Part shown: piece by piece, positions 9,305 through 29,156 of the stretch
How positions within the stretch are numbered: position 1 is the first letter of the stretch
Layout: each line of letters starts with the position of its first letter
Assembly: GCA_964510585.1 (NCBI GenBank)
Contig: CAZECW010000094.1
Span: 1-30,514 of the forward strand
Direction of reading: 5' to 3'
DNA from: an uncultured archaeon
Lineage (GTDB): Archaea > Asgardarchaeota > Jordiarchaeia > Jordiarchaeales > Jordiarchaeaceae
Length of the DNA: 30,514 nt
Notes under the pieces: model-generated
Seen by the model: only the letters and a program-made list of their open reading frames with translations
The model's database searches: none
What the model was told of the DNA's origin: nothing
Made by a program: the position numbers and the translations under genes

Positions 9305-9324
9305 ATATCGATAAATGCAAATAT
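9305..9324. promoter_or_regulatory. Putative ArsR-type operator (copy upstream of acr3 / divergent arsR)
   Basis: ATATCG-ATAAATGC-AAATAT. Confidence 0.55.
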
Positions 9325-9512
9325 GGGGAGATTGTTGTATATTGCTAAACTAGTGCTTGAGCCGAACGCATTCAAACAAACACTCTTAATGAGAATCTTT
9401 TTATTTCTAAGCAAACACCAAGCGATTTTAATTAAGGACATTTTACGGTAGGTTTAAGTGTATTTAAGATTATCGTTTCATATTGATATTTATAGATTTA
9501 GGATGTGAATCG

Positions 9513-9893
9513 ATGGAACGTTTAGCACGCCTAATCGAGGAGGATGAGTGCTCGGCAAAGTGTGAAGAATACGCTGATGAACTAAAAAAATTAATGGTAG
9601 AGATGGATAAAACCCCGTTATGCAAGTTTGGATCTCTACTTTTTAAAGCCCTAGCGGATCGTAATCGTCTAAGAATTTTGAAGATGCTGGCTGTTAGAGA
9701 GATGTGTGTTTGCGAATTAAATGTGGCATTAGACATTTCTCAGGGAACAATATCGCACCATCTGAAAATCCTCCAAGAAGCCAAATTAATAAAGGGAAGA
9801 GTGAAAGGTAAATGGAACTATTACCGACTCAGCAGTAAACAAGTTGATAAATTCATAAAAATCAGCGAACAACTCATAAAGGAATTATACTAA
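9513..9893 (+). CDS. arsR: ArsR/SmtB-family metalloregulator
   Basis: FKALADRNRLRIL, EMCVCEL (alpha3 CxC) and SQGTISHHLKIL motifs. Extra N-terminal Cys (ECSAKC, PLC). ATG 9513 is preferred over the ORF-track start at 9483. Confidence 0.93.
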   Translation: MERLARLIEEDECSAKCEEYADELKKLMVEMDKTPLCKFGSLLFKALADRNRLRILKMLAVREMCVCELNVALDISQGTISHHLKILQEAKLIKGRVKGKWNYYRLSSKQVDKFIKISEQLIKELY

Positions 9894-10212
9894 AAAGCAA
9901 ACTCACGACTTTTCTTTACCCAAAAGGTAATATGGGAACCAACTAAATTTATTTTGATTCCAGGTAGCTACCTCCAAATAGAGCAGAAAAACACATCCTG
10001 AGAATTAAAACTAATTGAAAACTTTATAAACACTAGAAAAAGAAAAAACAGAAAAAGGAGGCACCGAAATTGGAACAGGCAGAAGCCACCAATCGCCATT
10101 TCACTAAACACCTCATGTAATTATGCTTCTGGGAACCATCAATGTCTAGCTTGAATTAAGCCTGAGGTATGAGTAGGAGGACAGTTTTTGTGGGTGCCAT
10201 GAATTTTTAGAT

Positions 10213-11250
10213 TTATTTAATTTTGTCCATTTCTTCTTTGATGCTTTCTAGAATTTGTTCTTGGGAGGGTGTGGTTTTTGTGAATTTTAGATTTCCATTG
10301 ATTATTAATGCGGGTATTAGAGAGTTTTTTCCTGCCTCTATTAATCCTTTTGAAACTGTGGTTCCTGGGGGGCGGGCTTCTCCTTTTCTCCAGATTCTGA
10401 GTTCTATTTTTTGTTCTTCTCCTGACTCCTCAATTGCTTTTTTAACGTTTTCCTCGATCTCTGAGCATGTTTCTGTTGGTGGGTTGTCTAAAAGTAGTTC
10501 GATTAACAGTTTTCCGTAGGCTAGGGGAGGGATTCCATAAAGCAACCATTTTTCTGTTGTGTACTTGGTTTCGAGAACTGTCTTGAGGAACTCTTTTTCC
10601 TGCGGCGTTAAGTCTCCTTTTACGAGTTTTACTTTGAAATCGTTAATTATTTTGATGCAGGTGTTCTTGATGAAATCCTCTCGGGATAAATTTTCCTTAT
10701 AACGGTTTTTTATGCTTGTAATTATTCTGGGAAGCAGATTTAACCTGTTTGGAACTGTGAAATTTGTATCAAGGTAAACGACTCCCTGAAAAACGAGTAC
10801 ATCATAGTACCAGAATTGGGCGGCTTGCGAAACAATTTTCCCATCTTCAACTAGATAAAAAGGATCCTCATACGTGCAGGGTATGCCGTAGGATCTGATG
10901 GCTCTTATTATGGGACTATAAATTGCCACATAAATTTCTCGGATATTCTTGGGCAAATCATAATTCTTTGTGTTGATAATGAAGGTGAATATTAGTGAGT
11001 TTTCATCGATGAAAAAGCTGGGACCGAAGGTGTGTCTCCTAGCAAGCTCAATTCCGTGCTTTTTGAGTGTGTCTATTTCCTCCTCTTCTAATGTGTCGTC
11101 GCCGATGCTTAATGTTGGTTTACAGCTCCAAAAATGGATGGTGCTTGGCGCTAGAGAGTTATGCACTTGGATCATGATTGTTTCATCCATTGCAAATCCT
11201 ACATGAGGGTTTAAATGCTCGTTAATTATTAGTCTAATTTCGTTAGCCAT
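10213..11250 (-). CDS. Degenerate lipoate-ligase (LplA/BPL fold) domain fused to C-terminal thioredoxin-like domain
   Basis: AMDETIM, TIHFWS and ARRHTFGP (vs RRxSGGG). KIVSQAAQ...FQG replaces RKISGNAQ...HGT. C-terminal IELL...PPTETCSEIE...IPALIING...PS. Confidence 0.8.
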   Translation of the reverse strand: MANEIRLIINEHLNPHVGFAMDETIMIQVHNSLAPSTIHFWSCKPTLSIGDDTLEEEEIDTLKKHGIELARRHTFGPSFFIDENSLIFTFIINTKNYDLPKNIREIYVAIYSPIIRAIRSYGIPCTYEDPFYLVEDGKIVSQAAQFWYYDVLVFQGVVYLDTNFTVPNRLNLLPRIITSIKNRYKENLSREDFIKNTCIKIINDFKVKLVKGDLTPQEKEFLKTVLETKYTTEKWLLYGIPPLAYGKLLIELLLDNPPTETCSEIEENVKKAIEESGEEQKIELRIWRKGEARPPGTTVSKGLIEAGKNSLIPALIINGNLKFTKTTPSQEQILESIKEEMDKIK

Positions 11251-11271
11251 CTCTTGGCTCCCATCATGGTT

Positions 11272-11613
11272 TTATTTAGATAGGGATTCTATGTCCTTTG
11301 TGGTTTCTGATATTCTGCGTAGGTGTTCTAGTATCATTTCATCGATCAGTTTTAGAACGAGGAATATTCGTGGATCCTTAACCTTATACTCCACTTTTTG
11401 CCCAATTTTTTTGTGCTCTAATATGTTGCAATTTTTTAGGATTTGAATGTGTTGGGAAACTGTAGATTGAGACTTGTAAACGTGGGGTAAAATATCGCAT
11501 TGACAGCACTCACCACTCCTCAGAAGATCCAGAATCTTCAACCTGGTTTCATCAGCCAAGGCTTTGAGCAGCTCAATCCTCTTCTTATACAGAAGCTCCT
11601 CCTTCTTCTCCAA
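11272..11613 (-). CDS. arsR: ArsR/SmtB-family metalloregulator (CCxC type)
   Basis: LKALADETRLKILDLLRSGECCQCDI and SQSTVSQHIQIL. Confidence 0.92.
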   Translation of the reverse strand: MEKKEELLYKKRIELLKALADETRLKILDLLRSGECCQCDILPHVYKSQSTVSQHIQILKNCNILEHKKIGQKVEYKVKDPRIFLVLKLIDEMILEHLRRISETTKDIESLSK

Positions 11614-11666
11614 ACCTGATCACATTGAGAATTCCTCATTTGAAATAATTCAAATAAGTTATCATA

Positions 11667-12263
11667 CTAAATTTGGATAACGTGAATCTTTTTTTCAAGC
11701 TCCGCAGATTTTTCACTATCCAAATAGGGACAAGCGCGGGGAGAGTTTTCACCAGTTGCTAGCTTTATGGCAAATCCGTAACATGTGGAAACCCCACACT
11801 CCCCACAATCCTTTTTGGGCAAAAATTTGTTGATTTCAATTGGGCTGAGCTTGGTTTTGCTACTCATCAACTCCGGAGATATCTTCCCGTGGCGATTCAC
11901 ATAAATAGAAGCTCGATTTAAAAGATCCTTAACGTATCTCAGGATACTTTCGGCTTCTTCCCTATCTTTAAGATTTGTAACAGTTATTTTCCCAGCACCA
12001 AAAATTGTGATTAGATGCTCCTGAAACATGAAGCTCATGGACTCCGACTGCCTATTATATGTGGCCTGGGGAAGGTAAAGGTAAATGGCGGGAAGCAAAT
12101 CATCCAGATTTTCACTAGTGGTTCCCACAACTCTTATCCTCTCGGAGCTTGTCAAACAGGGAAGAACTTCAGATATTTTAATCTCCTTCACTCTGGGAGG
12201 AATAAGTAGATTAATAAGGGAAGACCCCTTTTGCCCATCATCAACCATAATCATATCCTCCAT
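11667..12263 (-). CDS. Fe-S-binding protein (COG4871-like; C-terminal putative Fe-S domain)
   Basis: N-terminal LPCLTSSERIRV...HLITIFGAGKITV and C-terminal LPKKDCGECGVSTCYGFAIKL...CPYL. ATG 12263 follows the SD AGGTG. Confidence 0.8.
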   Translation of the reverse strand: MEDMIMVDDGQKGSSLINLLIPPRVKEIKISEVLPCLTSSERIRVVGTTSENLDDLLPAIYLYLPQATYNRQSESMSFMFQEHLITIFGAGKITVTNLKDREEAESILRYVKDLLNRASIYVNRHGKISPELMSSKTKLSPIEINKFLPKKDCGECGVSTCYGFAIKLATGENSPRACPYLDSEKSAELEKKIHVIQI

Positions 12264-12366
12264 TAACACAAACACCTAAACATCACATTAGTTTCTACCC
12301 GCATTTCTAACAAGTTAAAAGACCATCAACTCCTACTGCATTGAACATAGAAAAAAATGCATTTAA

Positions 12367-12386
12367 ATATTGCTATATGATAATAT
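12367..12386. promoter_or_regulatory. Putative ArsR-type operator
   Basis: ATATTG-CTATATGA-TAATAT adjacent to TTTAAAT, upstream of the Fe-S/ArsR/ligase-like unit. Confidence 0.5.
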
Positions 12387-12565: not shown

Positions 12566-12844
12566 CTAATTAGTAACATTCTTTGATTCTAGTATGGATT
12601 CCAGTATTGCCTCCTCCAAGGTTTCTGGCTGGACATTTTTGATAAACTTTTTGGTTCCATTTATCACAATGCCTACATCTTTAATATTGTACTTCCTTGC
12701 TTCCTCAGAAAGAGAGGATTTTAAAATGAATTCGATGTGGTCTCTGTATTTTAGGGAAGTGCTCCACACGCGATCTAGAAATTCTGAATAGTAGCAGCCG
12801 CACAACTCTATGGGAACAAAAATTTCTAATTTGATTTTTGACAT
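12566..12844 (-). CDS. Small thioredoxin-fold-like protein with CxC motif
   Basis: KIKLEIFVPIELCGCYYSEFLDRV...GIVINGTKKF. Clear paralog of 28749..29009. Confidence 0.75.
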   Translation of the reverse strand: MSKIKLEIFVPIELCGCYYSEFLDRVWSTSLKYRDHIEFILKSSLSEEARKYNIKDVGIVINGTKKFIKNVQPETLEEAILESILESKNVTN

Positions 12845-12924
12845 GGAAATTCACCCTTGTTTTTAATTTTCGTGGAGATGGATTCTCATCCCATTTATAT
12901 ATACAGAAGTTTAAATATTTAAAT

Positions 12925-12944
12925 ATATCGATAAATGGTTATAC
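12925..12944. promoter_or_regulatory. Putative ArsR-type operator (weak right arm)
   Basis: ATATCG-ATAAATGG-TTATAC adjacent to TTTAAATA repeats. Confidence 0.45.
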
Positions 12945-13310
12945 TATGATAAAACTGTGCTCCAACATTCACGAGAAACAGTAGGACTCCTTCAACAAGC
13001 AAACCAAAGAACTGCAAAACAAAGCCCGAACCAAAAACAAATTGCAGAAAAACATAAAAACAAGGGAACAGCCAAAAAGGCAAAAAGGCAAACACAGCAC
13101 CTTCTCAGCACACAACCATTTTTAAAAAGAGTTTCCCATCCAAAAATTCAAACCTCCCTATTCCAAGAATAAAGGCATTATGATCAGTGTTTTGCGTGAA
13201 TTCTTTTCTCTTTCAAAGTATGAGCTAATGATTATTCTAATATGTAAAGTGTTTATCTTAAAAAATAGCAAAAATAAAAAAATTTAAATATTATGTTTGG
13301 TAAATAAAAT

Positions 13311-13330
13311 ATATCGTTTAATGGCAATAT
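13311..13330. promoter_or_regulatory. Putative ArsR-type operator downstream of TATA of radical SAM pair
   Basis: ATATCG-TTTAATGG-CAATAT, with TTTAAATA at 13283-13290. Confidence 0.6.
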
Positions 13331-13475: not shown

Positions 13476-14930
13476 ACGGTTAGTACAATCTCCTCAATAG
13501 AGGTTTTAAAATCTACAATTGACAACAGATTTGTTCGTTTCCTGTTAAGAAGACTAACCCGTAAATGTAGGATAGACGGAAAAAGCCGCTTAAACATCGC
13601 CCTAGAACTTTTTTCAGGAGCTAGAGAAAAAGCTTGCTTTACTTGCAGCCACATAACCCTACCTATTGTTCGGTGGACTATAAACAGAGGCGGCGCAGCA
13701 TTTGGAGTTTCAGAGGAAGATTTGAAAACCAGGTTCAAAGACCCCTATTGGCGCACAGGCCTCGTGGACGTAATTAAGGGAATAGCAAAATATGGTGTAA
13801 AAAAGCCCTTCGTTCCCGGAGCGCCATTCCTCATTGTGTGGGACTACACCTACGCCTGCAACCTGAGATGCAAACACTGCTACGCCTCAGCCGGTAAGCC
13901 TCTACCCAACGAATTCAGCGCCAGGGAGGCACTCGACACTGCTGATGAGCTTGCCGACGCCGGAGTTACCGCTGTTGCATTCTCGGGAGGAGAACCCCTG
14001 ATGCGGAAAGATCTATTCGACACCATGAAGAGGCTGAGAGACAACGGAGTATTCACAGCTGTTGCAACAAACGGAACCCTCATAACTAGGGAGGTTGCTA
14101 AAAAACTTGCAGACCTCGGTGCGGGTTTTGTTCAGATAAGTCTGGATGGCGCAAGCGCCGAAACCCACGATAGTTTCCGCGGTGTGCCTGGCACCTATGA
14201 GAGAACACTCCAAGCTATTAAAAATTGTGTTGAAAACGGCCTCTTCGTTGAGATCTCAACCACAGCTACAAAAATGAATTATGAAGAAGTTCCCAAGATC
14301 GCTGATTTGTGTGAGAAGATTGGCGTCGACTGGTACATGATTTTTAACTTCGTTCCAACTGGTAGAGGATACTTCATGATAGAAAACGACCTAACACCCG
14401 AAGATAGGGAAGATCTTCTCAAGATACTGTGGAACAGGTTGAAAAGTGGTGGTAAACTACAGTATCTATCCACAGCACCTCAATTTGCCAGGGTGGCTCT
14501 ACAAGAAGAGAAAGATTCGGAAAAGAAGATTATACCGGGACACTTCTACAATCCTACGCTAATGGGGCAACTCTCTAACTTGGGTGACTTCATTGGTGGT
14601 TGTGGAGCGGGTAGAATGTATGCAGCCCTTGAGCCTGAGGGCACTCTGCAGCCTTGTGTTTTTCTACCAATTAAACTGGGAAATCTCAGGGAGGAGAGAT
14701 TCGAAGAGATATGGGACAATCATCCCATCCTTCAAACGCTTAGAAACAGGGATGAGCTGAAGGGAAGATGTAAAACCTGCGAGTACAGAGATGTCTGCGG
14801 AGGATGCAGAGCAAGAGCCTACGGATACTTTGGCGATGTCACCGCCCCAGATCCGGGATGCATATATAATAAGGATGTTTTCTACAAACTTAAGACTGAA
14901 TTCGAGGAGAAAAAGGTGATCGAGATTTAG
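13476..14930 (+). CDS. Radical SAM/SPASM protein with archaeal N-terminal extension
   Basis: CNLRCKHC, FSGGEP, QISLDG and SPASM motifs (GCGAG...QPCVF; CKTC...CGGCRARAY...DPGC). The frame is open and protein-like from about 13455. The only SD-supported start is ACG at 13476 (GGAGGT 13464-13469). The ORF-track start at 13722 truncates the conserved N-terminus. Confidence 0.88.
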   Translation, partial: TVSTISSIEVLKSTIDNRFVRFLLRRLTRKCRIDGKSRLNIALELFSGAREKACFTCSHITLPIVRWTINRGGAAFGVSEEDLKTRFKDPYWRTGLVDVIKGIAKYGVKKPFVPGAPFLIVWDYTYACNLRCKHCYASAGKPLPNEFSAREALDTADELADAGVTAVAFSGGEPLMRKDLFDTMKRLRDNGVFTAVATNGTLITREVAKKLADLGAGFVQISLDGASAETHDSFRGVPGTYERTLQAIKNCVENGLFVEISTTATKMNYEEVPKIADLCEKIGVDWYMIFNFVPTGRGYFMIENDLTPEDREDLLKILWNRLKSGGKLQYLSTAPQFARVALQEEKDSEKKIIPGHFYNPTLMGQLSNLGDFIGGCGAGRMYAALEPEGTLQPCVFLPIKLGNLREERFEEIWDNHPILQTLRNRDELKGRCKTCEYRDVCGGCRARAYGYFGDVTAPDPGCIYNKDVFYKLKTEFEEKKVIEI

Positions 14931-14943
14931 GGGATACCTCTGT

Positions 14944-16335
14944 ATGCGTGTCTTGTTTGTTTTTCCCCCCTCTGTTTCAGCCATTCTCAACATTCTTGGT
15001 ACTACCTCTCCGCCTCTCGGGCTTGCTTATCTAGCCTCTTCGCTTGAGAGGGAGGGTGTGAATGTTAAGATTCTTGACGCGCAGGCACTAAATTTGAGCT
15101 TTGAGGAAATCGAAAGAGAGATAAGAGTTTGGAAACCCGATGTTGTCGGTGCCACGGGCGCCACACCAGCCTGCTTTGATGCACTCAGGGCTTTGGAGAT
15201 AGCTAAAAATTATGGTGCTAAAACTGTGGTGGGTGGTCCTCACTTCTCGTTTACAGACGTTGAAACTCTTGATAACTATCCTTTTGTGGACTTTGTTGTG
15301 AGAGGTGAGGGTGAAGAAACAATTGTGGAGCTTATAAGGGCTCTCGAGGGAAGCGGAAAAGTTTCGGAGGTATTAGGCTTGACGTACAGGGATGGAGAAA
15401 GTGTTCGAAAGAATCAGGATAGGCCGCTCATTAAAAATATTGACAGTATTCCCTTTCCAGCGTTCCACCTTCTCCCCATGAACAAGTACACTTTCGGCAA
15501 GTACCATTACGCAACAGCTATGACAAGCCGGGGTTGCCCTTACAGATGTGTTTTTTGCGCCTCATCAAAACTATTCGGTAAAAGGTGGAGGGGCAGAAGC
15601 CCAGAGAACGTGGCAGATGAGCTGGAACAACTTACTGAAAATTACCGTGTTAGAAACATTGAGTTTCTCGACGATACATTCACCCTAGACAAGGAACGGG
15701 CGGAGAAGATTTGTGACGAAATAATTAAGAGGGGACTGGATATAGTTTGGAATTGCTCCTCTAGGGTAAACACCATCAGCCGCAGTTTACTTGAAAAAAT
15801 GAAGAGAGCTGGCTGTACCTCCATATACTACGGCGTTGAATCTGGCTCCCAAGAAATACTGGATCGCATGAAGAAGGGAATCACACTAGACCAGATAGTA
15901 AGGGCGTTTAAAATAACCAAACGGGTGGGTATGGAGATAATAGGTTCATTCATAATCGGCTTCCCGGGTGAAACAATAAACACGATTAAAAAAACTATTA
16001 GTTTCGCAAAGTTTCTAAAACCGGACTACGCCCAATTCACCATCTGCACTCCATATCCCGGAACAGAACTCTTCGAAATCATTGAAAACAGTGACAATAT
16101 GCAGCTTTTAACCAAGGACTGGAGTGAATACGATGCCTTGAAACCAGTGTTTACGATAAACGATACACTCTATCCCTCACCATTAGATCTTATAAAATGG
16201 GTGAAGAAAGCCTATTTGAATTTCTATGTTTCACTGAGCTTTCTGTTTCAGCAGCTTAAAAAGAAACGCTTCATTGTTTGGAGAAAGGTGCTAAACGCAT
16301 TTAAGAATTATATAAAAGGCAATATCAGGTTCTGA
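14944..16335 (+). CDS. Cobalamin-binding radical SAM protein (class B methyltransferase-like)
   Basis: PPLGLAYLAS, GGPH, GEGE, SRGCPYRCVFC, DDTF, YGVESGSQ, IIGFPGET and TPYPGT motifs. Confidence 0.93.
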   Translation: MRVLFVFPPSVSAILNILGTTSPPLGLAYLASSLEREGVNVKILDAQALNLSFEEIEREIRVWKPDVVGATGATPACFDALRALEIAKNYGAKTVVGGPHFSFTDVETLDNYPFVDFVVRGEGEETIVELIRALEGSGKVSEVLGLTYRDGESVRKNQDRPLIKNIDSIPFPAFHLLPMNKYTFGKYHYATAMTSRGCPYRCVFCASSKLFGKRWRGRSPENVADELEQLTENYRVRNIEFLDDTFTLDKERAEKICDEIIKRGLDIVWNCSSRVNTISRSLLEKMKRAGCTSIYYGVESGSQEILDRMKKGITLDQIVRAFKITKRVGMEIIGSFIIGFPGETINTIKKTISFAKFLKPDYAQFTICTPYPGTELFEIIENSDNMQLLTKDWSEYDALKPVFTINDTLYPSPLDLIKWVKKAYLNFYVSLSFLFQQLKKKRFIVWRKVLNAFKNYIKGNIRF

Positions 16336-16769: not shown

Positions 16770-16928
16770 TTAACAGCACCCACCACTGGAGCCACCAGAA
16801 GGTAAAATTTTTTTAAATTCATTTTTCCAGCACTCGGTACACAGCCAAATTTTTCCTAAACTGCGATGTGTACCGCAAAGCAGGCTCACGTTTTCGCCAC
16901 TTTTACCGCAGATACCACACTTGTCCAT
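16770..16928 (-). CDS. Unannotated 52-aa Cys-rich protein (CxxC...CxxH...CxxC...terminal CC)
   Basis: MDKCGICGKSGENVSLLCGTHRSLGKIWLCTECWKNEFKKILPSGGSSGGCC*. It has the SD GGTGA, a TATA at 16982-16989 and a perfect operator between them. Below the ORF-track length cutoff. Confidence 0.8.
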   Translation of the reverse strand: MDKCGICGKSGENVSLLCGTHRSLGKIWLCTECWKNEFKKILPSGGSSGGCC

Positions 16929-16948: not shown

Positions 16949-16989
16949 GTTATATTGCTATACGCCAATATAACGATTTATTATTTAAA
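16949..16989 (-). promoter_or_regulatory. Promoter with perfect 9-bp inverted-repeat operator
   Basis: GTTATATTG-CTATACGC-CAATATAAC (16949-16974) lies downstream of TTTAAATA and a purine-rich BRE on the minus strand. Confidence 0.75.
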
Positions 16990-17250
16990 CCTTTTTTCCA
17001 CTAACGAAAAGATTTATGTGAAGAGGTACAAGGTATTTGGAGGATTGGTTTGGGGCAATGTTTTAGTGTTTTTACAGTGAAAAACCTTGGACAAAGCGAG
17101 GTTCAAGAAGAATAGAGGGACAAATGGGCAACCATAGTAACTTTAACCCAAAACTTACAAACATATATGACCTTTTTTTAGCGTATCTATTTATTTATTA
17201 GACAGCTTCCCTTGATTGAAAACTCAAGCGGGATTAACTCCTCAACTTTA

Positions 17251-17529: not shown

Positions 17530-17631
17530 GTAAAAGAAACATAAATAACCAAAAAACATCGGCAAGTTCTTGTAAGAACACTTGAAAAAAGTTAAATACA
17601 TGTATATGTGTATTTAATTTTGGTGGTATCA

Positions 17632-20750: not shown

Positions 20751-20751
20751 G

Positions 20752-21171
20752 TTAATCACCGTTTCTTTTTTCTTCAAGTAACTCATTTATTTTTTGGTAG
20801 ATTTTTTCTGCAAGTTTGCGGGATAGTTTTTTTGCATTTTCTCCTAGTGGATAAACACTTCTTTCTGGTTTCAATTCACGATTTTCTTTTAATACATCTG
20901 TTGACAGGAATTGAGCATCAATTTTTCCCACAGCTTCTGAAACATCATTATACGAACACTTTAGAGAACACCCGTCAATCACAATAACTTTGTTTGATTT
21001 TAGTTTATCAATAACTTCTTTTTTCCCCTTAACAATTAGTGGGAGACATTCTGTGTCCGCCTTGCCTTTAGCTAGTTCGTTTACCACGATGTATGCTGCT
21101 TCTCTGCCTATACTGCCATAGACTTTACCTATTCCACTGCAGGGAAGCAGGTAAACTATTTCTTTTGTCAA
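20752..21171 (-). CDS. DGC-domain putative zinc-binding protein (type A)
   Basis: LPCSGIGKVYG, ECLP and IDGCSLKCS. Confidence 0.88.
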   Translation of the reverse strand: MTKEIVYLLPCSGIGKVYGSIGREAAYIVVNELAKGKADTECLPLIVKGKKEVIDKLKSNKVIVIDGCSLKCSYNDVSEAVGKIDAQFLSTDVLKENRELKPERSVYPLGENAKKLSRKLAEKIYQKINELLEEKRNGD

Positions 21172-21173
21172 GC

Positions 21174-22055
21174 TCAGTCGCCTATGTTTTGTGCTCTGTG
21201 TTTTCGTTCTTCTTCTATTTTCTTTTTCATATACTCAAAATAGGCTGGACCGTCCATTAATAATTCTTTATCCTCTTCAAAGTTTTTCAGTTCTACTTCT
21301 ACGAACCATCCCTTCCCATAGGGATCTTGATTTAATAGTTCGGGTGATTTTTCTAGTTCCTTGTTCACCGCGACGACTTTGCCTGAAGCGGGAGTAATCA
21401 GTTGGAGGACAATTTTTATGGATTCAAAGCTTCCTATGTCGTCAAACTGTTCAAATTCCAAACCGATTTCGGGAAATTCCACAAAAATTATGTCGCTTGC
21501 CATGTTTTGGAGGAAATCAGAGATGCCCATAAGCGCCTTTTTACCCATGGGTTTTACCCAGCAATCATTTTCATTAAAATAGTAGCCAGACTTTGGAACT
21601 CTGAAACGGAACTTATCTACGGTGGTTTCAAAATATTCGATTTCTTCCAGCTCCCTAATCTCAGCAACCTCACCTTCTGATTCCTTTAAACTTTCAAGAA
21701 TTTCGGACGCTATGAATTCGGCTAATTTTTGCCCCTCCTCATCCAAAATGAGAGATTTTCCGGGGTTCAACTTGTACTTTTTAACCATGTCGGGCGTAAA
21801 AATTTTTTTACCGGGCCTTAATGATCTTTCATCAAGTAGCTTAGTTGCGCAGCGAGTCATACATCCATCAATCACAATTATATCAGATTCCTTCAAGAGT
21901 TCTTCGTATTTTTCATCTCCCGTATTCAGGAGAACGGGGCATATCAGCTCGATGTCAGGATTCTTTTCTATTAATTTCAATGCCACGTTTCTAGCAACAA
22001 CACCCAAAGACTTATCAAGCCCATTGCAGGGCAAAACACAAACCTTCTTACCCAT
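21174..22055 (-). CDS. DGC-domain / glycine-cleavage-H (lipoyl carrier) fusion protein
   Basis: N-terminal LPCNG, ICP and IDGCMTRCA. C-terminal GISDF..DIIFVEFP..GSFESIK (lipoyl Lys, codon 21414-21416)..PASGKVVAVN..PELLNQDPYGKGW. Confidence 0.9.
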   Translation of the reverse strand: MGKKVCVLPCNGLDKSLGVVARNVALKLIEKNPDIELICPVLLNTGDEKYEELLKESDIIVIDGCMTRCATKLLDERSLRPGKKIFTPDMVKKYKLNPGKSLILDEEGQKLAEFIASEILESLKESEGEVAEIRELEEIEYFETTVDKFRFRVPKSGYYFNENDCWVKPMGKKALMGISDFLQNMASDIIFVEFPEIGLEFEQFDDIGSFESIKIVLQLITPASGKVVAVNKELEKSPELLNQDPYGKGWFVEVELKNFEEDKELLMDGPAYFEYMKKKIEEERKHRAQNIGD

Positions 22056-22068
22056 GAGAAATTCACCT

Positions 22069-22371
22069 CTACTCGCTTTCCTTCCTTAATTCTTTGATTA
22101 GCTTGGTAATCTCTCTTTTGTCGGGAAATGATAGTGCGTCCACAGCGCAGGTTTTGGCGCAAGCCCTACAAAAAACTACACAGTTGTATGGGTTTTTTAC
22201 TATCAGTTTCTTTTCCTCATTTTCTCTCCGCTCGTAAACGTTGTGGGGACAAAACTTGTCGCACTCCATACAGAAATTGCACTTGCTGTAGTCGATTGTG
22301 GGGAACCAGGGAATTTTCTTTCTGGGAACGCCCATAAAGGTTTCCTGTTCCGCATCGTACTCTTTACTCAT
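22069..22371 (-). CDS. 2x[4Fe-4S] ferredoxin-like protein
   Basis: CNFCMECDKFCP and CVVFCRACAKTC, with an N-terminal FMGVPRKKIPWFPTIDY extension. Confidence 0.9.
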   Translation of the reverse strand: MSKEYDAEQETFMGVPRKKIPWFPTIDYSKCNFCMECDKFCPHNVYERRENEEKKLIVKNPYNCVVFCRACAKTCAVDALSFPDKREITKLIKELRKESE

Positions 22372-22762
22372 TCTTTTCTTCCTCCTCCTCTTTCTTTTCT
22401 TGGTATTCTTCTAGGGTTTTTTCAACTAGTTCTACAGCTTGGTCTGTTGTCATTTCTCTTATGTCGAGGGGTATGAGGTCTTTTTTTACATCTAGACCCG
22501 CTTTTTCGAAAGAGTCACGAAACAGTTTATATTGCATGTTGGGAGCGCAACCCGCTATGAGGTATTTTCGTCCGGGACGCAGAAAATCTTCAAGGAAGCG
22601 GTCACCATCTTCTTCGCAAAGCTGTGGATGAATAAACGCATATTCTACGGGTAGTTCTACACGTACCCGGTTAATAAAGTCCCAAATATCCATTTTTGCA
22701 AATCCTGGACATTTACCGGTGCATACGCACATTATAACGCCGATGTCTTTTTCTTCACTCAT
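22364..22762 (-). CDS. Stand-alone HdrA N-terminal-domain-like protein
   Basis: IGVIMCVC, QLCEEDG, IAGCAPNM..LFR and DIRE mirror the HdrA N-terminus (IGVYxCHC, MCSDPG, VAACSP..FR, NIRE). ATG 22762 is preferred; the ORF-track extension runs through the promoter. Confidence 0.7.
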   Translation of the reverse strand: MSEEKDIGVIMCVCTGKCPGFAKMDIWDFINRVRVELPVEYAFIHPQLCEEDGDRFLEDFLRPGRKYLIAGCAPNMQYKLFRDSFEKAGLDVKKDLIPLDIREMTTDQAVELVEKTLEEYQEKKEEEEEKNE

Positions 22763-22880
22763 TTCAAATTTCCACCTTTTTTGCAATGCTTGCCAAAAAT
22801 TTTTCCGAATGAATCTGCCTCTATAATTCTGGAATAAATTTTTTATGAACATAAGGACGAGGGAGTAGATAAATATAAAT

Positions 22881-23066: not shown

Positions 23067-23095
23067 ATATTGTCATAAAACGATAAGTTTAAATA
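23067..23095 (+). promoter_or_regulatory. Putative ArsR-type operator plus TATA box
   Basis: ATATTG-TCATAAAA-CGATAA (23067-23086) immediately before TTTAAATA (23088-23095). Confidence 0.6.
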
Positions 23096-23275: not shown

Positions 23276-23692
23276 TTGACTAAAAAGGTTGTAGTGCTAC
23301 CCTGCAGCGGCGTTGGAAAAGTTTACGGAACAATTTCACGTGAAGCAGCCTACAAAGCAGTCGAAGAACTTAAACTAGGAAAAACATCAATCACCTGTCT
23401 ACCACTACTAGTGGTGGGAGACGATGACGCCGAAAAGCTGGTTCAGGAGAATCCCTGTATCGTCATAAATGGTTGTCCATCAGGCTGCGCGACCTTAGCA
23501 ACTGAGAAGGCTGGAGGAAAGATAGTTCAGATAATTGACGTTACCAAAGTGCTCAAGGAGAACAGAGATTTAAAACCTAACCAGATGGCCATAAGAGAAC
23601 TTGACCCGAAGGGGAAAAAGTTAGCTGAGATAATAGCGGAAAAGATCAGTCAAGAGGTAGATAGAATATTAGACTCAGAGGAAGGAGGTTGA
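23276..23692 (+). CDS. DGC-domain putative zinc-binding protein (type A)
   Basis: LPCSGVGKVYG, TCLP and INGCPSGCA. Paralog of 20752..21171. Confidence 0.88.
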   Translation: MTKKVVVLPCSGVGKVYGTISREAAYKAVEELKLGKTSITCLPLLVVGDDDAEKLVQENPCIVINGCPSGCATLATEKAGGKIVQIIDVTKVLKENRDLKPNQMAIRELDPKGKKLAEIIAEKISQEVDRILDSEEGG

Positions 23693-23696
23693 AACA

Positions 23697-24122
23697 TTGT
23701 TTATTCCAATGGTAGGAGTGGTTCCCTGTAGTGGCGAGGAAATACCTGAAGGGACTGTTGCGAGAATTGCTGCACGCATTGTTTTGGAGAAGTTGAGACC
23801 CACCAAAACCATGACCATCTGCTTGCCTCTATATCTTGCTGGAGGAAAAGATGAGCAGGAGTTTGTCAGGAGGCAACCCACAATTGTCATAGATGGCTGC
23901 GGCAAGGGATGCGCTGAAAAAAGTATAAGAAAAAATGGGGGAAACATAGCCGCAGTAATCAGGGTTCCCGAAATAATGAATGGATGTAAACTTAGGGCAA
24001 AGACCAGGGCCAAGCTGGATGAAGAAGGCGAAAAACTGGCTGAGATAGTAGCAGAAAAAATCGCAGAGGAGGTAGACAGAGTACTCCAAGAAATGAAAAA
24101 GAAAAGCGAACAAGGAGGATAA
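23697..24122 (+). CDS. DGC-domain putative zinc-binding protein (type B)
   Basis: VPCSGEEIPEGT, ICLP and IDGCGKGCA. Paralog of 20268..20750. Confidence 0.88.
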   Translation: MFIPMVGVVPCSGEEIPEGTVARIAARIVLEKLRPTKTMTICLPLYLAGGKDEQEFVRRQPTIVIDGCGKGCAEKSIRKNGGNIAAVIRVPEIMNGCKLRAKTRAKLDEEGEKLAEIVAEKIAEEVDRVLQEMKKKSEQGG

Positions 24123-24253
24123 AACTGACCAAAAAATCAAAAAACGAAATGTTACTTGTCTAACTTTTTCAAATACAAAGTTTTGCGAAAAATTCGCTAA
24201 ACGAATAGTACTCAGGTAAAAAATTTGAAAATGAATTTAGAGGAGGAAAAGAA

Positions 24254-24661
24254 ATGGAAGGAAAAGAAGGTAAGACTGTTATCTATGCTTGTTTTGGTGG
24301 TTTTTCCAATACCGGCATTACTACTGCTTTAGCCAGCATGGATGCGGTAAAAGAGGTTGGACTAGACAAGGTATGTATAGGTTGCTTGGGTGGATTGCCA
24401 ATAAACGTAAGACCTGTTTATGAAAACACTGATAAAGCGAAGAAAATTATTACCGTTGACGGTTGCCCGATGGAATGTTCAAGGAAAACAGTGGAGAATG
24501 CAGGATACAAGATAGCTAAAAGCATTGTACTAGCAAGAGACATCGGAATGAAGAAAAAGTCACTATATGAAGGAAATGAGAAAAACCTGACAGACAACAT
24601 TAATGGGGAAGATGTCAGAAAAGCAAAAGAGCTAATTGTCAAAGCAATACTAGAGGATTAA
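24254..24661 (+). CDS. DGC-domain putative zinc-binding protein (type C)
   Basis: YACFGGFSNTG, IGCLGG and VDGCPMECS. Confidence 0.88.
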   Translation: MEGKEGKTVIYACFGGFSNTGITTALASMDAVKEVGLDKVCIGCLGGLPINVRPVYENTDKAKKIITVDGCPMECSRKTVENAGYKIAKSIVLARDIGMKKKSLYEGNEKNLTDNINGEDVRKAKELIVKAILED

Positions 24662-24987: not shown

Positions 24988-25440
24988 CTAGTCACTTAGT
25001 TTATCGACTGCTTCTGTAGGTGTTAAAGCTTGAATGTTGAGATAGTCTTTGAAGTCTGCGGGGTTCCAGGTTACCAAAACCTCGGAGTAGGCTTCTGCGT
25101 GGGAGGCTATAAGGAAGTCTGGTAAAATTCTTTTTCTCGCTCCTGGCCGTTGAAGAAGGTACTGGGAAAACATTTGCCCAGCTCTCTTTGCGACCTCCAA
25201 GGAACCACCAAGGTGAACTAATATATTGTTTACCGCAAGGAATTTTTGAACATTATACTCTTCTTCCTCCGGATTCCCACTGAGAAATATTCCCGCATAT
25301 AGTTCTGCATACACAACTCCAGAAATTATCAGACTCAGTTTTTTATCTCTAGCCCATCTGAAAAATTTGAGTGTCTCGTGAAAGAATTCGTCGGCTTTGA
25401 GATGGCTAATTATAACACTTGTATCAAGTGAAACTCTCAA
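24988..25440 (-). CDS. vapC: PIN-domain (VapC) toxin
   Basis: LDTSVII, VYAEL, ILPDFLIASHA and LVTWNPADF motifs. Confidence 0.92.
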   Translation of the reverse strand: MRVSLDTSVIISHLKADEFFHETLKFFRWARDKKLSLIISGVVYAELYAGIFLSGNPEEEEYNVQKFLAVNNILVHLGGSLEVAKRAGQMFSQYLLQRPGARKRILPDFLIASHAEAYSEVLVTWNPADFKDYLNIQALTPTEAVDKLSD

Positions 25441-25442
25441 CC

Positions 25443-25700
25443 CTAATCCTCTTCTTCGGCTTTGCCTCTAAGCCATCGTACAATTTCTACTGAGTTTTTC
25501 ATTTTTCCAAAGATAGGATGGTTGTTCCAGACCCCTGCAGTTTCCGCCATGACTTTCTCCCACTCTCCGCCAACCTTCTCTATAATTATTTTGCCGTCTA
25601 CATATCGGACATCGACAATGTCTCCTATGGTTAGCCCTACTTTCTCCCTAATCTCTTGAGGAATTGTTACCTGAAAGCGACGCGTGACCTTTACAAACAA
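25443..25700 (-). CDS. AbrB/MazE/SpoVT-family antitoxin
   Basis: VKVTRRFQVTIPQEIREKVGLTIGDIVDV...GKIIIEK. Confidence 0.9.
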   Translation of the reverse strand: MFVKVTRRFQVTIPQEIREKVGLTIGDIVDVRYVDGKIIIEKVGGEWEKVMAETAGVWNNHPIFGKMKNSVEIVRWLRGKAEEED

Positions 25701-25803: not shown

Positions 25804-26859
25804 TTATGGGAGAATTGTTTTTGCTTGCATTATTGCTACTATGAGGTCTGTTGGTTTTATTCCAGGTGTAATAATATTTTGTTTATAAAAATCTTCGACT
25901 ATTTGTTTTATGTTTTGATAGTTGTATGGTTTGTCTTTTAGCATTTTTTCGAGTTGTTTTAGTGCCTGTGGAGGGGTTATGAAGAAGTCTCCGCTTATGT
26001 TTATTTCTTTAATATTGTTGTTGGATATGTTTAGTGAGACGCGTATTAGTCCTCCGGGTGCCTTGTACACGGTTTCGTGTTCAAACTCGAGGCTGCTTCC
26101 AAAAATCCACTCGGGGGAGCTATACTTTTTTTGGAGTTCCCGGGCCATTTCGAGTTCTTCTGGTGTGAGTTTCGAGTCCTGGAACTCGACGCCAAGAGCT
26201 TCTTGGTATCCCCTGCGAACCGCGTTTTTCACAATACTCACGGGAATTGTTGTCCCCAGCTCCCTTTTTATTGTTGTCACTCTATCTCTTACTGAGGATG
26301 CATTCTTGTCCCTGAGTTTTTCGGTGGACACTCTCAGAGCATTTTCTAAATTTTCAAAGTTTAGATCTATGAGGAGTGTTCCGTGATGGATGAGAACATT
26401 ATGGAGTTGGTGCTGAGCGTTTCCAGAAATTTTTCTTTTACCAATAACAATATCATTTACGGGCTTAAACTCTGCCTCCAGTCCCAATAATTTAAGGGCG
26501 ATAATTAAACCTCTACAGAGATACGAGTATGATTCTATGGGGTCTTTGAAGGATCTGAACTTGTTAGTGTCTATGTAGAGTGAGTAGTTTAGGTTTCCCG
26601 AATCCTGGTACACTGCCCCGCCCCCCGATAGTCTTCTAACTATTTTTATTCCCTTCTGTTTACAGTAGTCTACATTCACTTCTTTCTCTACCCGCTGGTT
26701 GCACCCTACACTTACGATTAGGGGGTGTTGCCACACTCTGAGAGCGTTTGGAGAATTTTTTTCCAGTATGCTTCTGGCCATGGTTTCTTCTATTGCTAGG
26801 TTCATGTATGGGTCATCTGAACTATAGTCGATAAAGCGCCAGGACTCCTTCAAAGTCAC
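25804..26859 (-). CDS. lplA: Lipoate-protein ligase A (with C-terminal adenylation-assisting domain)
   Basis: YMNLAIEE, VRRLSGGGAVYQDSGNLNYS, VNDI, RKISGNAQ, HHGTLL and C-terminal YKAPGGLIRV...ISGDFF. Confidence 0.93.
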   Translation of the reverse strand: MTLKESWRFIDYSSDDPYMNLAIEETMARSILEKNSPNALRVWQHPLIVSVGCNQRVEKEVNVDYCKQKGIKIVRRLSGGGAVYQDSGNLNYSLYIDTNKFRSFKDPIESYSYLCRGLIIALKLLGLEAEFKPVNDIVIGKRKISGNAQHQLHNVLIHHGTLLIDLNFENLENALRVSTEKLRDKNASSVRDRVTTIKRELGTTIPVSIVKNAVRRGYQEALGVEFQDSKLTPEELEMARELQKKYSSPEWIFGSSLEFEHETVYKAPGGLIRVSLNISNNNIKEINISGDFFITPPQALKQLEKMLKDKPYNYQNIKQIVEDFYKQNIITPGIKPTDLIVAIMQAKTILP

Positions 26860-26867
26860 CCCGCCCC

Positions 26868-27902
26868 TTACTTTATTCTTTTAATCTCTTCCCTTACAAT
26901 ATTTGAAAACTCTTCAGGGGTGGGAACAGTTCTTCCATATTTTAGTTCGCCGTTTACTATCACTGCAGGAATCTGGGACTTTTTAGCAGCTTCTATTAAC
27001 CCGTTTGTAACAGTGACACCGGGAGGTAGACCTCTCCCCCTTCTCCATATCCTTAACTCAATTTCTTCTTCGTTCCCAGACATTTTTATTCCCTCCTTCA
27101 CATTTTTTTCTATCTGGGAACACATTTTAGTGGGGGGAGAAGCAGTCAAAACCTCTATGAGAAGTTTACCATAAGCTAGAGGTGGAGAAAACTCCAAATT
27201 CCACCTTGGAGACTGATACTTAGTTTTCAAAACCCGTTCAAAAGTTTTATTCTCTAAATCTGTCAAGCTTCCCTCAATAAGGGTGGCTCCAAATTTTTCC
27301 CTTATTCTACTTGAGGCTTCCTCTATAAACTCTCTAACAGTTTTTTTGCTTGATGAGAGCCGTGTTAGACTGGATACCTTTTTGGGGAGGATACCCGCAG
27401 AGTTGGCAAAATCCACGTCGACATCCAAGTAAACGACGCCCTGAAAAACTAATATATCATAGTACCAAAACTGTGAAACTTGAGAGGTTACCACATCATC
27501 TACGAATAGGTAAGATGTATTATCAAAGGCACATTTTACGCCAAAATTTTCTATTGTTTCGATTATTGGAGAGTAAACCAGCCGGTACAAATCATTTAAC
27601 TCTCTTGGAAAAAGAGGATCACGTGTATCAAGGATGAAGCCAAATAGTAATGAACCTTCATCAGCGTAGAATGTTGGTCCATCAGTAACCCTCCTAATAA
27701 TTCGGACGTTTTTCTCTTTGAGGAAACTCATCTGGTCTTGGTTCAACCGCAGGTTTCCTAAAACTATGGAGGGAGGGCTTCTCCAAAAATGTACTGTGTT
27801 GGGTGCATCTCCACCCTTGACGTGGAGCATGATGGTTTCATCTAAAGCCCACCCCAAGCTTGGCTCAACAAGGTCTTGGATAAAAATTCTTAGTTCCTTA
27901 AT
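26868..27902 (-). CDS. Degenerate lipoate-ligase domain fused to C-terminal thioredoxin-like domain (paralog of 10213..11250)
   Basis: ALDETIM, TVHFWR, IRRVTDGP and VVTSQVSQ..FQG (no catalytic Lys), with PPTKMCSQIE...IPAVIVNG..PT. ATT 27902 (SD GGAGGT, 1 nt after the upstream stop) fits the paralog alignment. The alternative ATGs at 27953/27977 overlap the upstream gene. Confidence 0.8.
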   Translation of the reverse strand: MKELRIFIQDLVEPSLGWALDETIMLHVKGGDAPNTVHFWRSPPSIVLGNLRLNQDQMSFLKEKNVRIIRRVTDGPTFYADEGSLLFGFILDTRDPLFPRELNDLYRLVYSPIIETIENFGVKCAFDNTSYLFVDDVVTSQVSQFWYYDILVFQGVVYLDVDVDFANSAGILPKKVSSLTRLSSSKKTVREFIEEASSRIREKFGATLIEGSLTDLENKTFERVLKTKYQSPRWNLEFSPPLAYGKLLIEVLTASPPTKMCSQIEKNVKEGIKMSGNEEEIELRIWRRGRGLPPGVTVTNGLIEAAKKSQIPAVIVNGELKYGRTVPTPEEFSNIVREEIKRIK

Positions 27903-27903
27903 T

Positions 27904-28599
27904 TTAGTGACCTCCCTTATAATATACACATTTATCCTTTTTACATTCTTCATTGTTGGAAGAAAAGGGACACCCATCGAAATTTGAGGGTAATTTGATT
28001 TGAAAATTTTTTTCTAAAAAGTCTACGGCGCTTTTTAACGAGGCATAAACGCTGGCTTTGCAGCATCTTGGACCTCCCAACTTTGAGATAGAGAGTAGTG
28101 ATTCACCACTGGCATCCAAAGACTGCGTCCTTTCAGTGTCAGACTTGTAAGTTGCTCCCGTTAGAACGCTCATGGCAATTCCAACACCTGCCCCAGCTCC
28201 GCAAATCCCCCAGGATCCGCAAGTACCATAAGGTATCATTTTCCCCCTCTTAATGGCAATTCTAATTGCTCTGGATGGCAATTCGTGCCCTACATTTTTT
28301 ATTGTGGTTAATAGTACAGCGGGAACAAGGTAGTGATGGATGGGAGAATGCATGGGTATTGCGGGATGCTTCATTATTAGGTTAGCTAGTTCGTATGGGT
28401 TTTTTATTTCACTTCTCTCACAGGTTTTTAAAACTAATTCTTCTGGGAGAGCTAGTCTACAGTTCTCGCACACAAAGTGGTGGTCATCGCAAGTATAGTC
28501 TGCAACTGAAACCTCCTTACAATATATGCACCTTAGCTCTTCAGAAGTTGGGTGAAGAACTTTATTGCAAATATTGCAGTAGAAAACCTCGTTTTCCAA
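27904..28599 (-). CDS. DUF5714-like Cys-rich protein with N-terminal zinc-finger-like domain
   Basis: CNIC, CIYC, C..HHFVCENC, HSPIHHYLVPAVLL, GTCGSWGICGAG, GGPRCCK and CPFS..N.EC....C motifs. Confidence 0.75.
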   Translation of the reverse strand: MENEVFYCNICNKVLHPTSEELRCIYCKEVSVADYTCDDHHFVCENCRLALPEELVLKTCERSEIKNPYELANLIMKHPAIPMHSPIHHYLVPAVLLTTIKNVGHELPSRAIRIAIKRGKMIPYGTCGSWGICGAGAGVGIAMSVLTGATYKSDTERTQSLDASGESLLSISKLGGPRCCKASVYASLKSAVDFLEKNFQIKLPSNFDGCPFSSNNEECKKDKCVYYKGGH

Positions 28600-28748
28600 G
28601 AACAGCCCTCAACCGGTATGAATAATTTGTTGCCTTCTCCGAGTTACGGACTTGCTGGTTCATTGATGTGCTTCCACCCGTGAAGCAACCTGCAAAAGTC
28701 GCAGTCGAGTATTTTTTGAAAAAACATATAAAGGAGGAGGTTTGTGGC

Positions 28749-29009
28749 TCATGCTTTTAGAGCATTTTCTATTGCTTTTTCTAGGCTTTCTGGCTTAAAA
28801 AACTCTGGAAACACTTCGCTGCCGTTTACCACCAGCCCCTTACTGCCGATTTTGAATTTCCTAGCCTCATCTGAGAAAGAAGGCTTTACATCAAATTCCA
28901 CTTGGTCTCGGTACTTTGTCAGTACTGCAAATACGCGGTCCATGAATGCTGAGAATTGGCAGGCGCATGAACCCATAGGGATGAAAATATCTACTTTAAC
29001 TTTTGACAT
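28749..29009 (-). CDS. Small thioredoxin-fold-like protein with CxC motif
   Basis: KVKVDIFIPMGSCACQFSAFMDRV...GLVVNG. SD GGAGG. Confidence 0.78.
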   Translation of the reverse strand: MSKVKVDIFIPMGSCACQFSAFMDRVFAVLTKYRDQVEFDVKPSFSDEARKFKIGSKGLVVNGSEVFPEFFKPESLEKAIENALKA

Positions 29010-29136
29010 GGAATCATTCCTCCTATTTCTAGTCTTGTTCTGTTTTATTCACCTTTTTATTTTTGATTAAACTTGTGGTTTGACGCCCATTAACATGGTT
29101 TTCCTTGTATAGTATTAGTGTCGACGGCTTTTAAAT

Positions 29137-29156
29137 ATATCGACGTATAACAATAT
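29137..29156. promoter_or_regulatory. Putative ArsR-type operator
   Basis: ATATCG-ACGTATAA-CAATAT overlapping TTTAAATA, upstream of the CxC/DUF5714/ligase unit. Confidence 0.65.

Follow-up and report, generated by a model that had tools for sequence, protein, structure and literature searches.

A recurrent dyad between the genes of the island

The 30,514-nucleotide (nt) window analysed here is the entire contig C94 of a 3.78-Mb, 217-contig metagenome-assembled genome of the Asgard lineage Jordarchaeia/Freyarchaeia (G000). The public runs listed as containing its DNA were all hot-spring metagenomes, with no RNA run among them. Pfam and NCBIfam profile searches of the window proteins revealed an island of genes for an ACR3 arsenite efflux pump, ArsR-family regulators, radical SAM enzymes, a TauE/SafE-family exporter, DGC-domain proteins, lipoate ligases (LplA) and DsrE/DsrH-like proteins. 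Between these genes recurs a 20-bp quasi-palindrome of 6-8-6 architecture, ATATCG-N8-CAATAT, which an earlier note on this DNA had placed at nine positions and proposed to be the operator of a local ArsR protein. Strict-pattern, mismatch and position weight matrix (PWM) scans recovered all nine, and a tenth, weaker site was added near the contig end. In the list below, bits are leave-one-out (LOO) scores for sites 1 to 9, and TATA boxes and promoter positions were assigned from TATA-like words in the sequence.

9305 to 9324, plus strand: site 1, ATATCGATAAATGCAAATAT; LOO 25.1 bits, no equal position outside the contig
12367 to 12386, plus strand: site 2; LOO 20.6 bits, none outside; abuts the TATA word TTTAAAT at 12360-12366
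12925 to 12944, plus strand: site 3, right arm degenerate; LOO 18.6 bits, none outside; abuts a TATA word at 12917-12924
13311 to 13330, plus strand: site 4, perfect match; LOO 25.9 bits; kept in G003 and G004
16952 to 16971, no strand assigned: site 5, perfect palindrome; between a TATA word at 16985-16992 and the ATG at 16928
19113 to 19132, plus strand: site 6, weakest core, TAATCGTTAAATGCAAATAC; LOO 15.8 bits
22881 to 22900, plus strand: site 7, perfect match; top LOO score, 26.4 bits; abuts a TATA-like element at 22868-22880
23067 to 23086, minus strand: site 8; LOO 22.8 bits, none outside; abuts a TATA word at 23088-23095
29137 to 29156, plus strand: site 9, perfect match; LOO 12.9 bits; abuts a TATA word at 29128-29136
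30460 to 30479, minus strand: site 10, new and weak, TTATCGAAATATTATAATAT; 14.6 bits; abuts a TATA-like element at 30480-30490

The strict pattern, ATATYG-N8-CAATAT, matched four times in the window (13311, 16952, 22881 and 29137) and not once in 100 dinucleotide-preserving shuffles of it, and four of its six matches in the whole 3.78-Mb genome fell on this 30-kb contig. Sites 9305, 12367 and 23067 were one mismatch away from the pattern and sites 12925 and 19113 were 3-4 bases away, so that the weakness remarked earlier for 12925 is shared by 19113. When each of the nine sites was scored with a 20-column PWM built from the other eight and compared with ~7.5 million positions, seven had no equal-or-better position outside the contig. 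Sites 19113 and 29137 had 8 and 33 such positions, respectively, the low score of 29137 arising because its spacer is unusual. When the full matrix was run over the genome, the nine sites reached 21-28 bits and the top match elsewhere 19.3 bits. The best outside matches (on contigs C146, C216, C121, C163 and C24) were rejected as further regulon members, and those inspected were intragenic or adjoined unrelated toxin-antitoxin genes. The sites and their genome-wide exclusivity are direct observations, and the putative regulon is limited to the island rather than genome-wide.

All sites are intergenic, as first described, once two gene starts are corrected (orf132 to the ATG at 22762, the FeS/TBP-like gene to the ATG at 12263), and the perfect dyad at 16952 indeed extends to 9-bp arms (GTTATATTG / CAATATAAC). 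Enrichment over the genomic background and restriction to putative promoters, two properties looked for in an ArsR/SmtB-type operator, were both found, as was an inverted repeat spaced for a winged-helix dimer (6-8-6 or 12-2-12) at ten sites. The matrix of the ten sites holds ~19 bits, with the consensus wTATCG-wT-wwAT-G-nc-AATAT and invariant positions A3, T4, G6, A11, A17, T18 and A19. Its correlation with its own reverse complement is 0.62. A matrix from 19 sites of other genomes correlates at 0.96 with that of G000 and at 0.86 with its own reverse complement, and this symmetry points to ATATCG-nn-ATAT-nn-CGATAT as the ancestral operator. Eight of the ten sites share their absolute orientation (ATATCG end left on the plus strand) regardless of gene direction, which is not significant alone (P ~0.1).

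An independent repeat finder returned the sites as its leading families (D1, D2, D4, I2, I9 and I11), with similarity between copies stopping after 33-47 nt. Its output bears on a reading in which the motif is no operator but the remnant of a duplicated promoter cassette, a small mobile repeat, or an extended B recognition element (BRE) for an alternative TFB. Parts of the island are duplicated (orf92/orf86m and two LplA-like/thioredoxin genes; families D3, D5 and D14) and seven sites abut a TATA box, as that reading would have it. However, the short copies carry no terminal repeats or target duplications, the spacers diverged after the orf92/orf86m duplication while the site stayed, and the dyad recurs upstream of arsR in other classes with unrelated flanks. 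An extended BRE is further contradicted by the three sites located past the TATA box on its downstream side, and a MITE-like (miniature inverted-repeat transposable element) origin was rejected given the 33-47-nt similarity and the unrelated flanks. We consider a non-operator explanation extremely improbable.

The regulon first proposed comprised acr3, the radical SAM pair, the 52-aa protein, TauE, the DGC operons and the ligase units, and a site precedes each of them:

8085 to 9239, minus strand: unit 1, acr3, arsenite efflux pump (TIGR00832, 429 bits against a cut-off of 283)
10213 to 12263, minus strand: unit 2, FeS/TBP-like gene, arsR-B and LplA-like/thioredoxin fusion (Pfam); site 2
11667 to 12263: FeS/TBP-like protein of unit 2, 198 aa, with a C-terminal CdhE/RnfB-type Fe-S domain
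12566 to 12844, minus strand: unit 3, orf92, small CxC protein; site 3
13476 to 16335, plus strand: unit 4, radical SAM/SPASM and B12-radical SAM enzymes (Pfam, NCBIfam); site 4
16770 to 16928, minus strand: unit 5, 52-aa protein containing seven cysteines (96-100% identity to its G003 and G004 counterparts); site 5
19152 to 20144, plus strand: unit 6, TauE/SafE-family exporter (Pfam PF01925, E = 3.9e-35); site 6
20268 to 22762, minus strand: unit 7, orf132, ferredoxin, DGC-GcvH fusion, DGC, DGC (Pfam); site 7
23276 to 24661, plus strand: unit 8, three DGC-domain genes (Pfam); site 8
25804 to 29009, minus strand: unit 9, orf86m (CxC), DUF5714, LplA-like/thioredoxin, LplA (Pfam); site 9
28749 to 29009, minus strand: orf86m, first gene of unit 9
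29226 to 30324, minus strand: dsrE-dsrE-dsrH-like genes (Pfam), divergent from arsR-C

The genes of unit 7 overlap or lie at most 13 nt apart, and unit 2, with intergenic gaps of 53 and 21 nt, is probably one operon. Unit 9 can be taken as a single operon only provisionally because a 150-nt gap follows orf86m. Site 10 lies between dsrH on the minus strand and arsR-C on the plus strand of the adjoining contig C83, and the dsrE-dsrE-dsrH genes may be its target. If these assignments hold, the operator marks out one co-regulated system and defines its member genes, placing the ACR3 pump under the same proposed switch as DGC-domain proteins, the DGC-GcvH lipoyl carrier, lipoate ligases of dedicated and degenerate type, DsrEFH-like carriers, the radical SAM pair and Cys-rich microproteins. 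The shared operator would also be independent support that the island genes answer the same signal.

ArsR-B/C and the motif across Asgard genomes

Three arsR genes belong to the island, one of them beyond the window:

9513 to 9893, plus strand: arsR-A, beside acr3; EMCVCEL, recognition helix ISQGTISHHLK
11272 to 11613, minus strand: arsR-B (NCBIfam NF033788, 81 bits against a cut-off of 55; Pfam HTH_5, E = 4e-14)
C83, 156 to 458, plus strand: arsR-C, ~160 nt beyond site 10 on the adjoining contig

Contig C83 (L051) begins with the last 8 nt of C94 (30507-30514) and both are contiguous and collinear on a G003 contig, and the island therefore continues beyond the contig end. ArsR-B scores above the curated family cut-off for ArsR/SmtB metalloregulators and carries the recognition helix KSQSTVSQHIQ; the core of this helix, KSQST(I/V)SQH, is invariant between ArsR-B and ArsR-C, whose nearest solved relatives are CadC, HlyU and SmtB. 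A linked arsR gene that itself has a site upstream, a further property of ArsR/SmtB-type operators, was found repeatedly: arsR-B sits in the operon headed by site 2, arsR-C behind site 10, and G005, Sifarchaeum, Borrarchaeum, G016 and Loki lineages show equivalent arrangements.

G005 (complete), G006 and G007 all keep the motif but yielded no ArsR-A orthologue. Together with the co-occurrence patterns described below, this makes the ArsR-B/C clade the likely binder, and not the acr3-adjacent ArsR-A. The proposal that a local ArsR controls all units is thus supported by geometry and comparative evidence in a refined form, with ArsR-B/C as the regulators and ArsR-C encoded beyond the contig. The promoter of arsR-A itself (9468-9499; L047 4300-4325) contains another dyad over a TATA-like word, ATTGATA-TT-TATCAAT, which is perfect in G003, imperfect in G000 and weak under the island matrix (13.6-16.9 bits); it may be ArsR-A's own operator.

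A different binder, be it ArsR-A, the FeS/TBP-like protein or an unlinked factor, is in our view very unlikely. ArsR-A is encoded beside site 1, and several lineages have the FeS/TBP-like gene together with the motif; its product gives a weak TBP-domain match (E = 8e-4, below the cut-off). Yet, besides its absence from the three genomes above, ArsR-A has a different recognition helix, neither the complete, closed genome G005 nor the surroundings of the Borrarchaeum sites yielded a full-length FeS/TBP-like gene, and in G005, G006, G007 and Borrarchaeum the motif persists adjoining arsR-B/C. The FeS/TBP-like gene is kept beside arsR-B/C and dsrHEF in several Asgard lineages.

Comparison of G000 with its congeners (G001, G002, G003, G004 and G005) and with a sister family (G006 and G007) revealed that motif and ArsR-B/C occur together, a direct observation like the conservation of the sites. 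G001, G003 and G004 encode ArsR-B/C, and a degenerate pattern fitted on the sites of G000 matches them 5-10 times. In G002 (99% complete) no ArsR-B/C homologue and no DGC-GcvH fusion were found, and its single match to the degenerate pattern equals the level of the reversed-pattern control; this congener without ArsR-B/C has neither motif nor island. G005 encodes a single ArsR-C and has five sites, at acr3, a radical SAM gene, a DGC operon, orf86m and arsR-C. In G006 and G007, a compact cluster comprises arsR-C, dsrHEF, orf86, GcvH, DGC, DGC and the FeS/TBP-like gene, with motif sites preceding the DGC operon and the FeS/TBP-like gene. The divergent arsR-C/dsrHEF pair was found in G003, G004, G006, G007, G010 and G016. 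Isolated matches in G036 and G027 have no island-protein homologue nearby and were taken as chance or unrelated.

Site by site, the acr3 site lies 66-85 nt upstream of the acr3 ATG (9239), with acr3 on its ATATCG side; when the acr3 upstream regions of G000, G003 and G005 are aligned, no other block is conserved. Sites 7 and 8 are identical in G001 and G004, as is site 2, which differs by one base in G003. Site 3, upstream of the minus-strand orf92, is kept in G003 and G004 and occupies a position paralogous to that of site 9 (repeat families D1/D3), which is conserved in G001, G003 and G004. The promoter block of site 5 is conserved in G003 and G004, with an abrupt divergence of the sequence beyond it. 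Site 6 shares a 3' AACG flank with sites 4 and 5 (family D4), and its G004 orthologue has diverged (14.2 bits). Site 10 is likewise conserved in G003, and its G004 counterpart differs by one base.

A scan of GTDB species, with an ArsR-B/C alignment as query, yielded 60 loci, 50 of them outside Jordarchaeia/Freyarchaeia. Within 300 nt upstream of the arsR homologue, these 50 loci contain 14 site clusters of at least 14 bits where 0.63 are expected (P ~1e-14, a value that overstates the evidence, as the distant loci are interrelated), compared with 3 such clusters in 69 kb of their other non-coding DNA. The half-site ATATCG/CGATAT occurs there at 4.2 per kb upstream of arsR versus 0.57 per kb in other non-coding DNA, a seven-fold difference, and at least two copies lie upstream of arsR in 23 of the 50 loci. 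The control hexamer ATATGC, which overlaps the motif centre, gave 1.85 versus 0.40 per kb, and two other control hexamers 0.27-0.82 versus 0.29-0.40 per kb. Individual examples include Sifarchaeum, with a site 46 nt upstream of arsR within a DGC, DGC-GcvH, orf86, FeS/TBP-like and LplA cluster; Borrarchaeum, with ATATCGACATATGACCATAT between a TATA word and arsR; and G016, with ATATCGTAATATGCTGATAT between arsR and FeS/TBP-like-dsrHEF. Several Asgard classes thus appear to share an arsR-linked motif despite the kinship among loci.

In Lokiarchaeial and Hermodarchaeial loci (L072-L104), a block of the form ...TAATAA-CGATAT-gc-CGATAT-ATAAATATTACGGTG... lies ~125 nt upstream of the arsR homologue. 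Its half-sites are arranged in tandem at an 8-bp period, not inverted, and many Lokiarchaeial loci carry it.

Promoter layout, probable inducer and proposed mechanism

The two promoter layouts described earlier were both found in the sequence. In the first (13311, 16952 and 19113), the site lies between the TATA word and the start codon. At 16952 and 19113, the word TTTAAATA stands 13 and 7 nt upstream of the site, and the distance from the site to the start codon is 24 and 20 nt (for 19113, TATA 19098-19105 and the TauE ATG at 19152); the expected transcription start should therefore be covered. Site 4 is located ~26 nt downstream of a TATA word at 13277-13284, at the predicted start of the radical SAM pair transcript. 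In the second layout (12367, 12925, 22881, 23067, 29137 and 30460), the ATATCG end abuts a TTTAAAT-type word with the gene on the TATA side, the operator fills the BRE position plus 15 bp beyond, and the implied 5' leaders are 50-190 nt. The same arrangement recurs in G005 at orf86m and arsR-C. The TATA-like word that abuts the ATATCG end of site 1 stands out only in the orthologues from G003 and G005, whereas that of G000 is weak. Both layouts would predict repression.

Together, these data indicate that the motif is probably the operator of an ArsR/SmtB repressor of the ArsR-B/C clade that controls the whole island and is released by As(III)/Sb(III); what we infer from the sequence comprises the binding and the repression, the inducer and the transcription starts. 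In an ArsR-B/C dimer, one recognition helix would contact each half-site, ATATCG and CAATAT/CGATAT, whose centres are separated by 14 bp; the ten sites head about ten transcription units including arsR-C/dsrEFH. At 13311, 16952 and 19113, the dimer would lie over the predicted transcription start and block RNA polymerase recruitment. At the other seven sites, a dimer at the BRE side of the TATA box would exclude TFB and TBP, because the site occupies the position where TFB reads the BRE. The repressor would be released, and the whole island induced together, once its alpha-3 CxC cysteines bind a thiophilic metalloid, for which As(III) and Sb(III) are the most likely candidates; the arsR genes would be autoregulated.

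Activation by recruitment of TBP or TFB from upstream sites is known for SurR, TrmBL1 and Ptr2 in other archaea. The same regulator might accordingly act in two ways by position, as a repressor over the start and as an activator upstream of TATA/BRE through TBP/TFB recruitment. The two layouts are clearly distinct, and the fixed orientation at seven sites, with the ATATCG end towards the TATA box and the other half on the far side, could place an activating surface. There is, however, no space for a separate BRE, and the CGATAT half in the BRE position favours occlusion; ArsR/SmtB proteins are overwhelmingly effector-released repressors; and across lineages arsR genes carry both layouts, which is simpler under autorepression. 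Such dual action is unlikely.

Concerning the inducer, ArsR-B (ECCQCD) and ArsR-C (EMCQCD) have an alpha-3 CxC thiolate site of the ArsR(R773)/CadC type, and both align with ELCVCD of S. aureus CadC (1u2w), EMCQCD doing so residue for residue. In G003 and G004, a full-length FMN reductase gene lies downstream of an operator-headed transporter unit, and the FMN reductase family includes ArsH. Because of the CxC alignment, the ACR3 target and this FMN reductase, As(III)/Sb(III) would be the likeliest inducer.

A sulfur species (persulfide, polysulfide, sulfite or thioarsenate) acting on the same operator and the same ArsR-B/C binder is possible, though on balance unlikely. In the persulfide-sensing ArsR subgroup (SqrR/BigR/HlyU/sHdrR/SoxR), conserved alpha-2 and alpha-5 cysteines form a sulfur bridge (PMC12423496, PMC10451225). 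Both defining cysteines are missing here: the first HlyU sulfur-sensing position (ILCML) is a Gln in ArsR-C (ILQFL), and neither ArsR-B nor ArsR-C has a C-terminal cysteine. The CxC site aligned with the CadC/ArsR metal site, the presence of ACR3 among the targets and the retention of the acr3 site in the most divergent congener also speak against a sulfur signal. In its favour, the targets include DsrEFH-like carriers, TauE, and GcvH-like lipoyl carriers with their ligases; the sulfur-species sensor HlyU is among the nearest solved relatives; Hyphomicrobium also has two paralogous ArsR repressors with overlapping targets; and in G003/G004 an operator precedes a molybdopterin oxidoreductase that matches formate dehydrogenase alpha best and, in second place and far below cut-off, thiosulfate reductase PhsA.

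Several points weigh against an ArsR-B/C operator released by arsenite or antimonite across the whole island. Taken singly, sites 19113 and 29137 score poorly when left out of the matrix. The promoter assignments depend on TATA-like words in AT-rich DNA, and the abutting TATA boxes imply leaders that appear long for this genome, with TATA-like words nearer the genes available. Genome-wide, the spacing from TATA-like word to ATG is broad (-50 to -90) without a sharp peak, and this distribution was too broad to choose between alternative TATA boxes. Congeners are ~90% identical in many spacers, which makes conservation weak evidence except at acr3, and the interrelated distant loci perhaps represent eight to ten independent lineages, as judged by eye. 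One G006 ArsR-C reads CQY instead of CQC and the Loki homologues (L072-L104) have no sensor cysteines, so the inducer may differ between lineages. Many of the targets (DsrEFH, TauE, lipoyl carriers) look sulfur-related and not arsenic-related.

The operator proposal is precise enough to be tested with three small proteins and 20-bp oligonucleotides. A bolder reading, which is unlikely, sees in the KSQSTISQH helix and the ATATCG half-site an ancient pair kept across Asgard classes, which in Jordarchaeia/Freyarchaeia would have become a ten-promoter, position-dependent switch that represses from the start site and activates from the BRE-proximal sites, with the lipoyl-carrier/DGC/DsrE/radical SAM module as an arsenite/thioarsenate response. 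If true, the regulon would be the first functional handle on this widespread module.

Related systems and neighbouring genes

ArsR/SmtB operators are in general imperfect inverted repeats at or near the promoter, and the CadC-DNA crystal revealed the box ATTCAA-N8-TTGAAT with a non-palindromic centre and strongly spacer-dependent binding (bioRxiv 10.64898/2026.09.30.755606). The sites described here resemble CadC/ArsR/SmtB operators in their 20-bp 6-8-6 dyad, non-palindromic centre, position over promoter elements and linked, autoregulated regulator gene. In contrast, the half-site is ATATCG instead of ATTCAA, the site would compete with TBP/TFB at an archaeal TATA/BRE instead of sigma-70 at -35/-10, and a single island holds ten operators where those systems have one or two.

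Functionally, the nearest counterpart is known from Hyphomicrobium denitrificans, where two ArsR-type repressors, sHdrR and SoxR, control the sHdr/lipoate-binding-protein island for sulfur oxidation (PMC12423496, PMC10451225). Both systems have two paralogous ArsR-type repressors encoded among lipoyl-carrier, DsrE-type and lipoate-ligase genes, with several promoters and overlapping targets. Whereas sHdrR and SoxR sense sulfane sulfur via Cys50 and Cys116, ArsR-B/C lack both residues, and the island described here has no sHdr genes but ACR3 and DGC-domain genes, in an anaerobic archaeon. ArsR-family control of several separate arsenic-resistance promoters is also known for TtSmtB/TtArsR of Thermus thermophilus (PMC5658604) and for the paralogues of the ArsR1/ArsR2 bifan of Pseudomonas putida (PMC7994332); these systems are bacterial and involve canonical ars genes only, in contrast to the targets here, most of which are of unknown function.

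Archaeal winged helix-turn-helix repressors such as MsvR, Phr, TrmB and MDR1 block recruitment of TBP/TFB or RNA polymerase according to operator position; they differ from the present system in effectors and motifs, and we know of none of this type described in Asgard archaea. Literature searches on the motif, Asgard ArsR operators and a DGC/lipoyl arsenic module returned nothing specific. The operator set is of the known ArsR/SmtB kind; unusual are the number of promoters per island, the fixed TATA-abutting archaeal layout and the cross-class conservation in Asgard archaea.

Within the target units, in-frame conservation of the radical SAM/SPASM frame reaches 13476 in G003 and G004 (13476-13721, ~82 codons before the listed TTG). 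The likely start behind a GGAGG is ACG in G000 and G004 and ATG in G003, which suggests a non-canonical ACG start or a later one. The small CxC proteins orf92 and orf86m are paralogues (MSK.K..IF.P...C.C) with 5' ends 72% identical in DNA, each headed by an operator; their orthologues occur in G005, G006 and Sifarchaeum, and the adjacent LplA-like/thioredoxin genes are duplicated too. orf71 (12957-13172) was rejected as a coding target gene on account of frame changes in G003 and G004. A metal-binding role of the DUF5714 protein (27904-28599) is hinted at by a match, E = 9e-40 but well short of the cut-off, to the NCBIfam model 'metal-binding double selenoprotein MbdU'.

In G004 (L040, G004:C234, 6142-13798), there are two extra operator sites, one of them common to G003 (L047:11554), whose contig ends before the remainder of this region. 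One heads a molybdopterin oxidoreductase and an Fe-S/CMD subunit, and the other a second SBF/ACR3-like transporter, with genes for DUF1805, CMD and FMN reductase downstream on the same strand; G000 is without these operator-headed genes at that place. Two toxin-antitoxin pairs without operator, VapBC (17608-18262) and PIN/MazE (24988-25700), lie between regulated units of the window. VapBC is followed by a truncated FMN-reductase fragment (18575-18961), and in G004 it is flanked by a full-length 194-aa FMN reductase upstream and a partial copy downstream.

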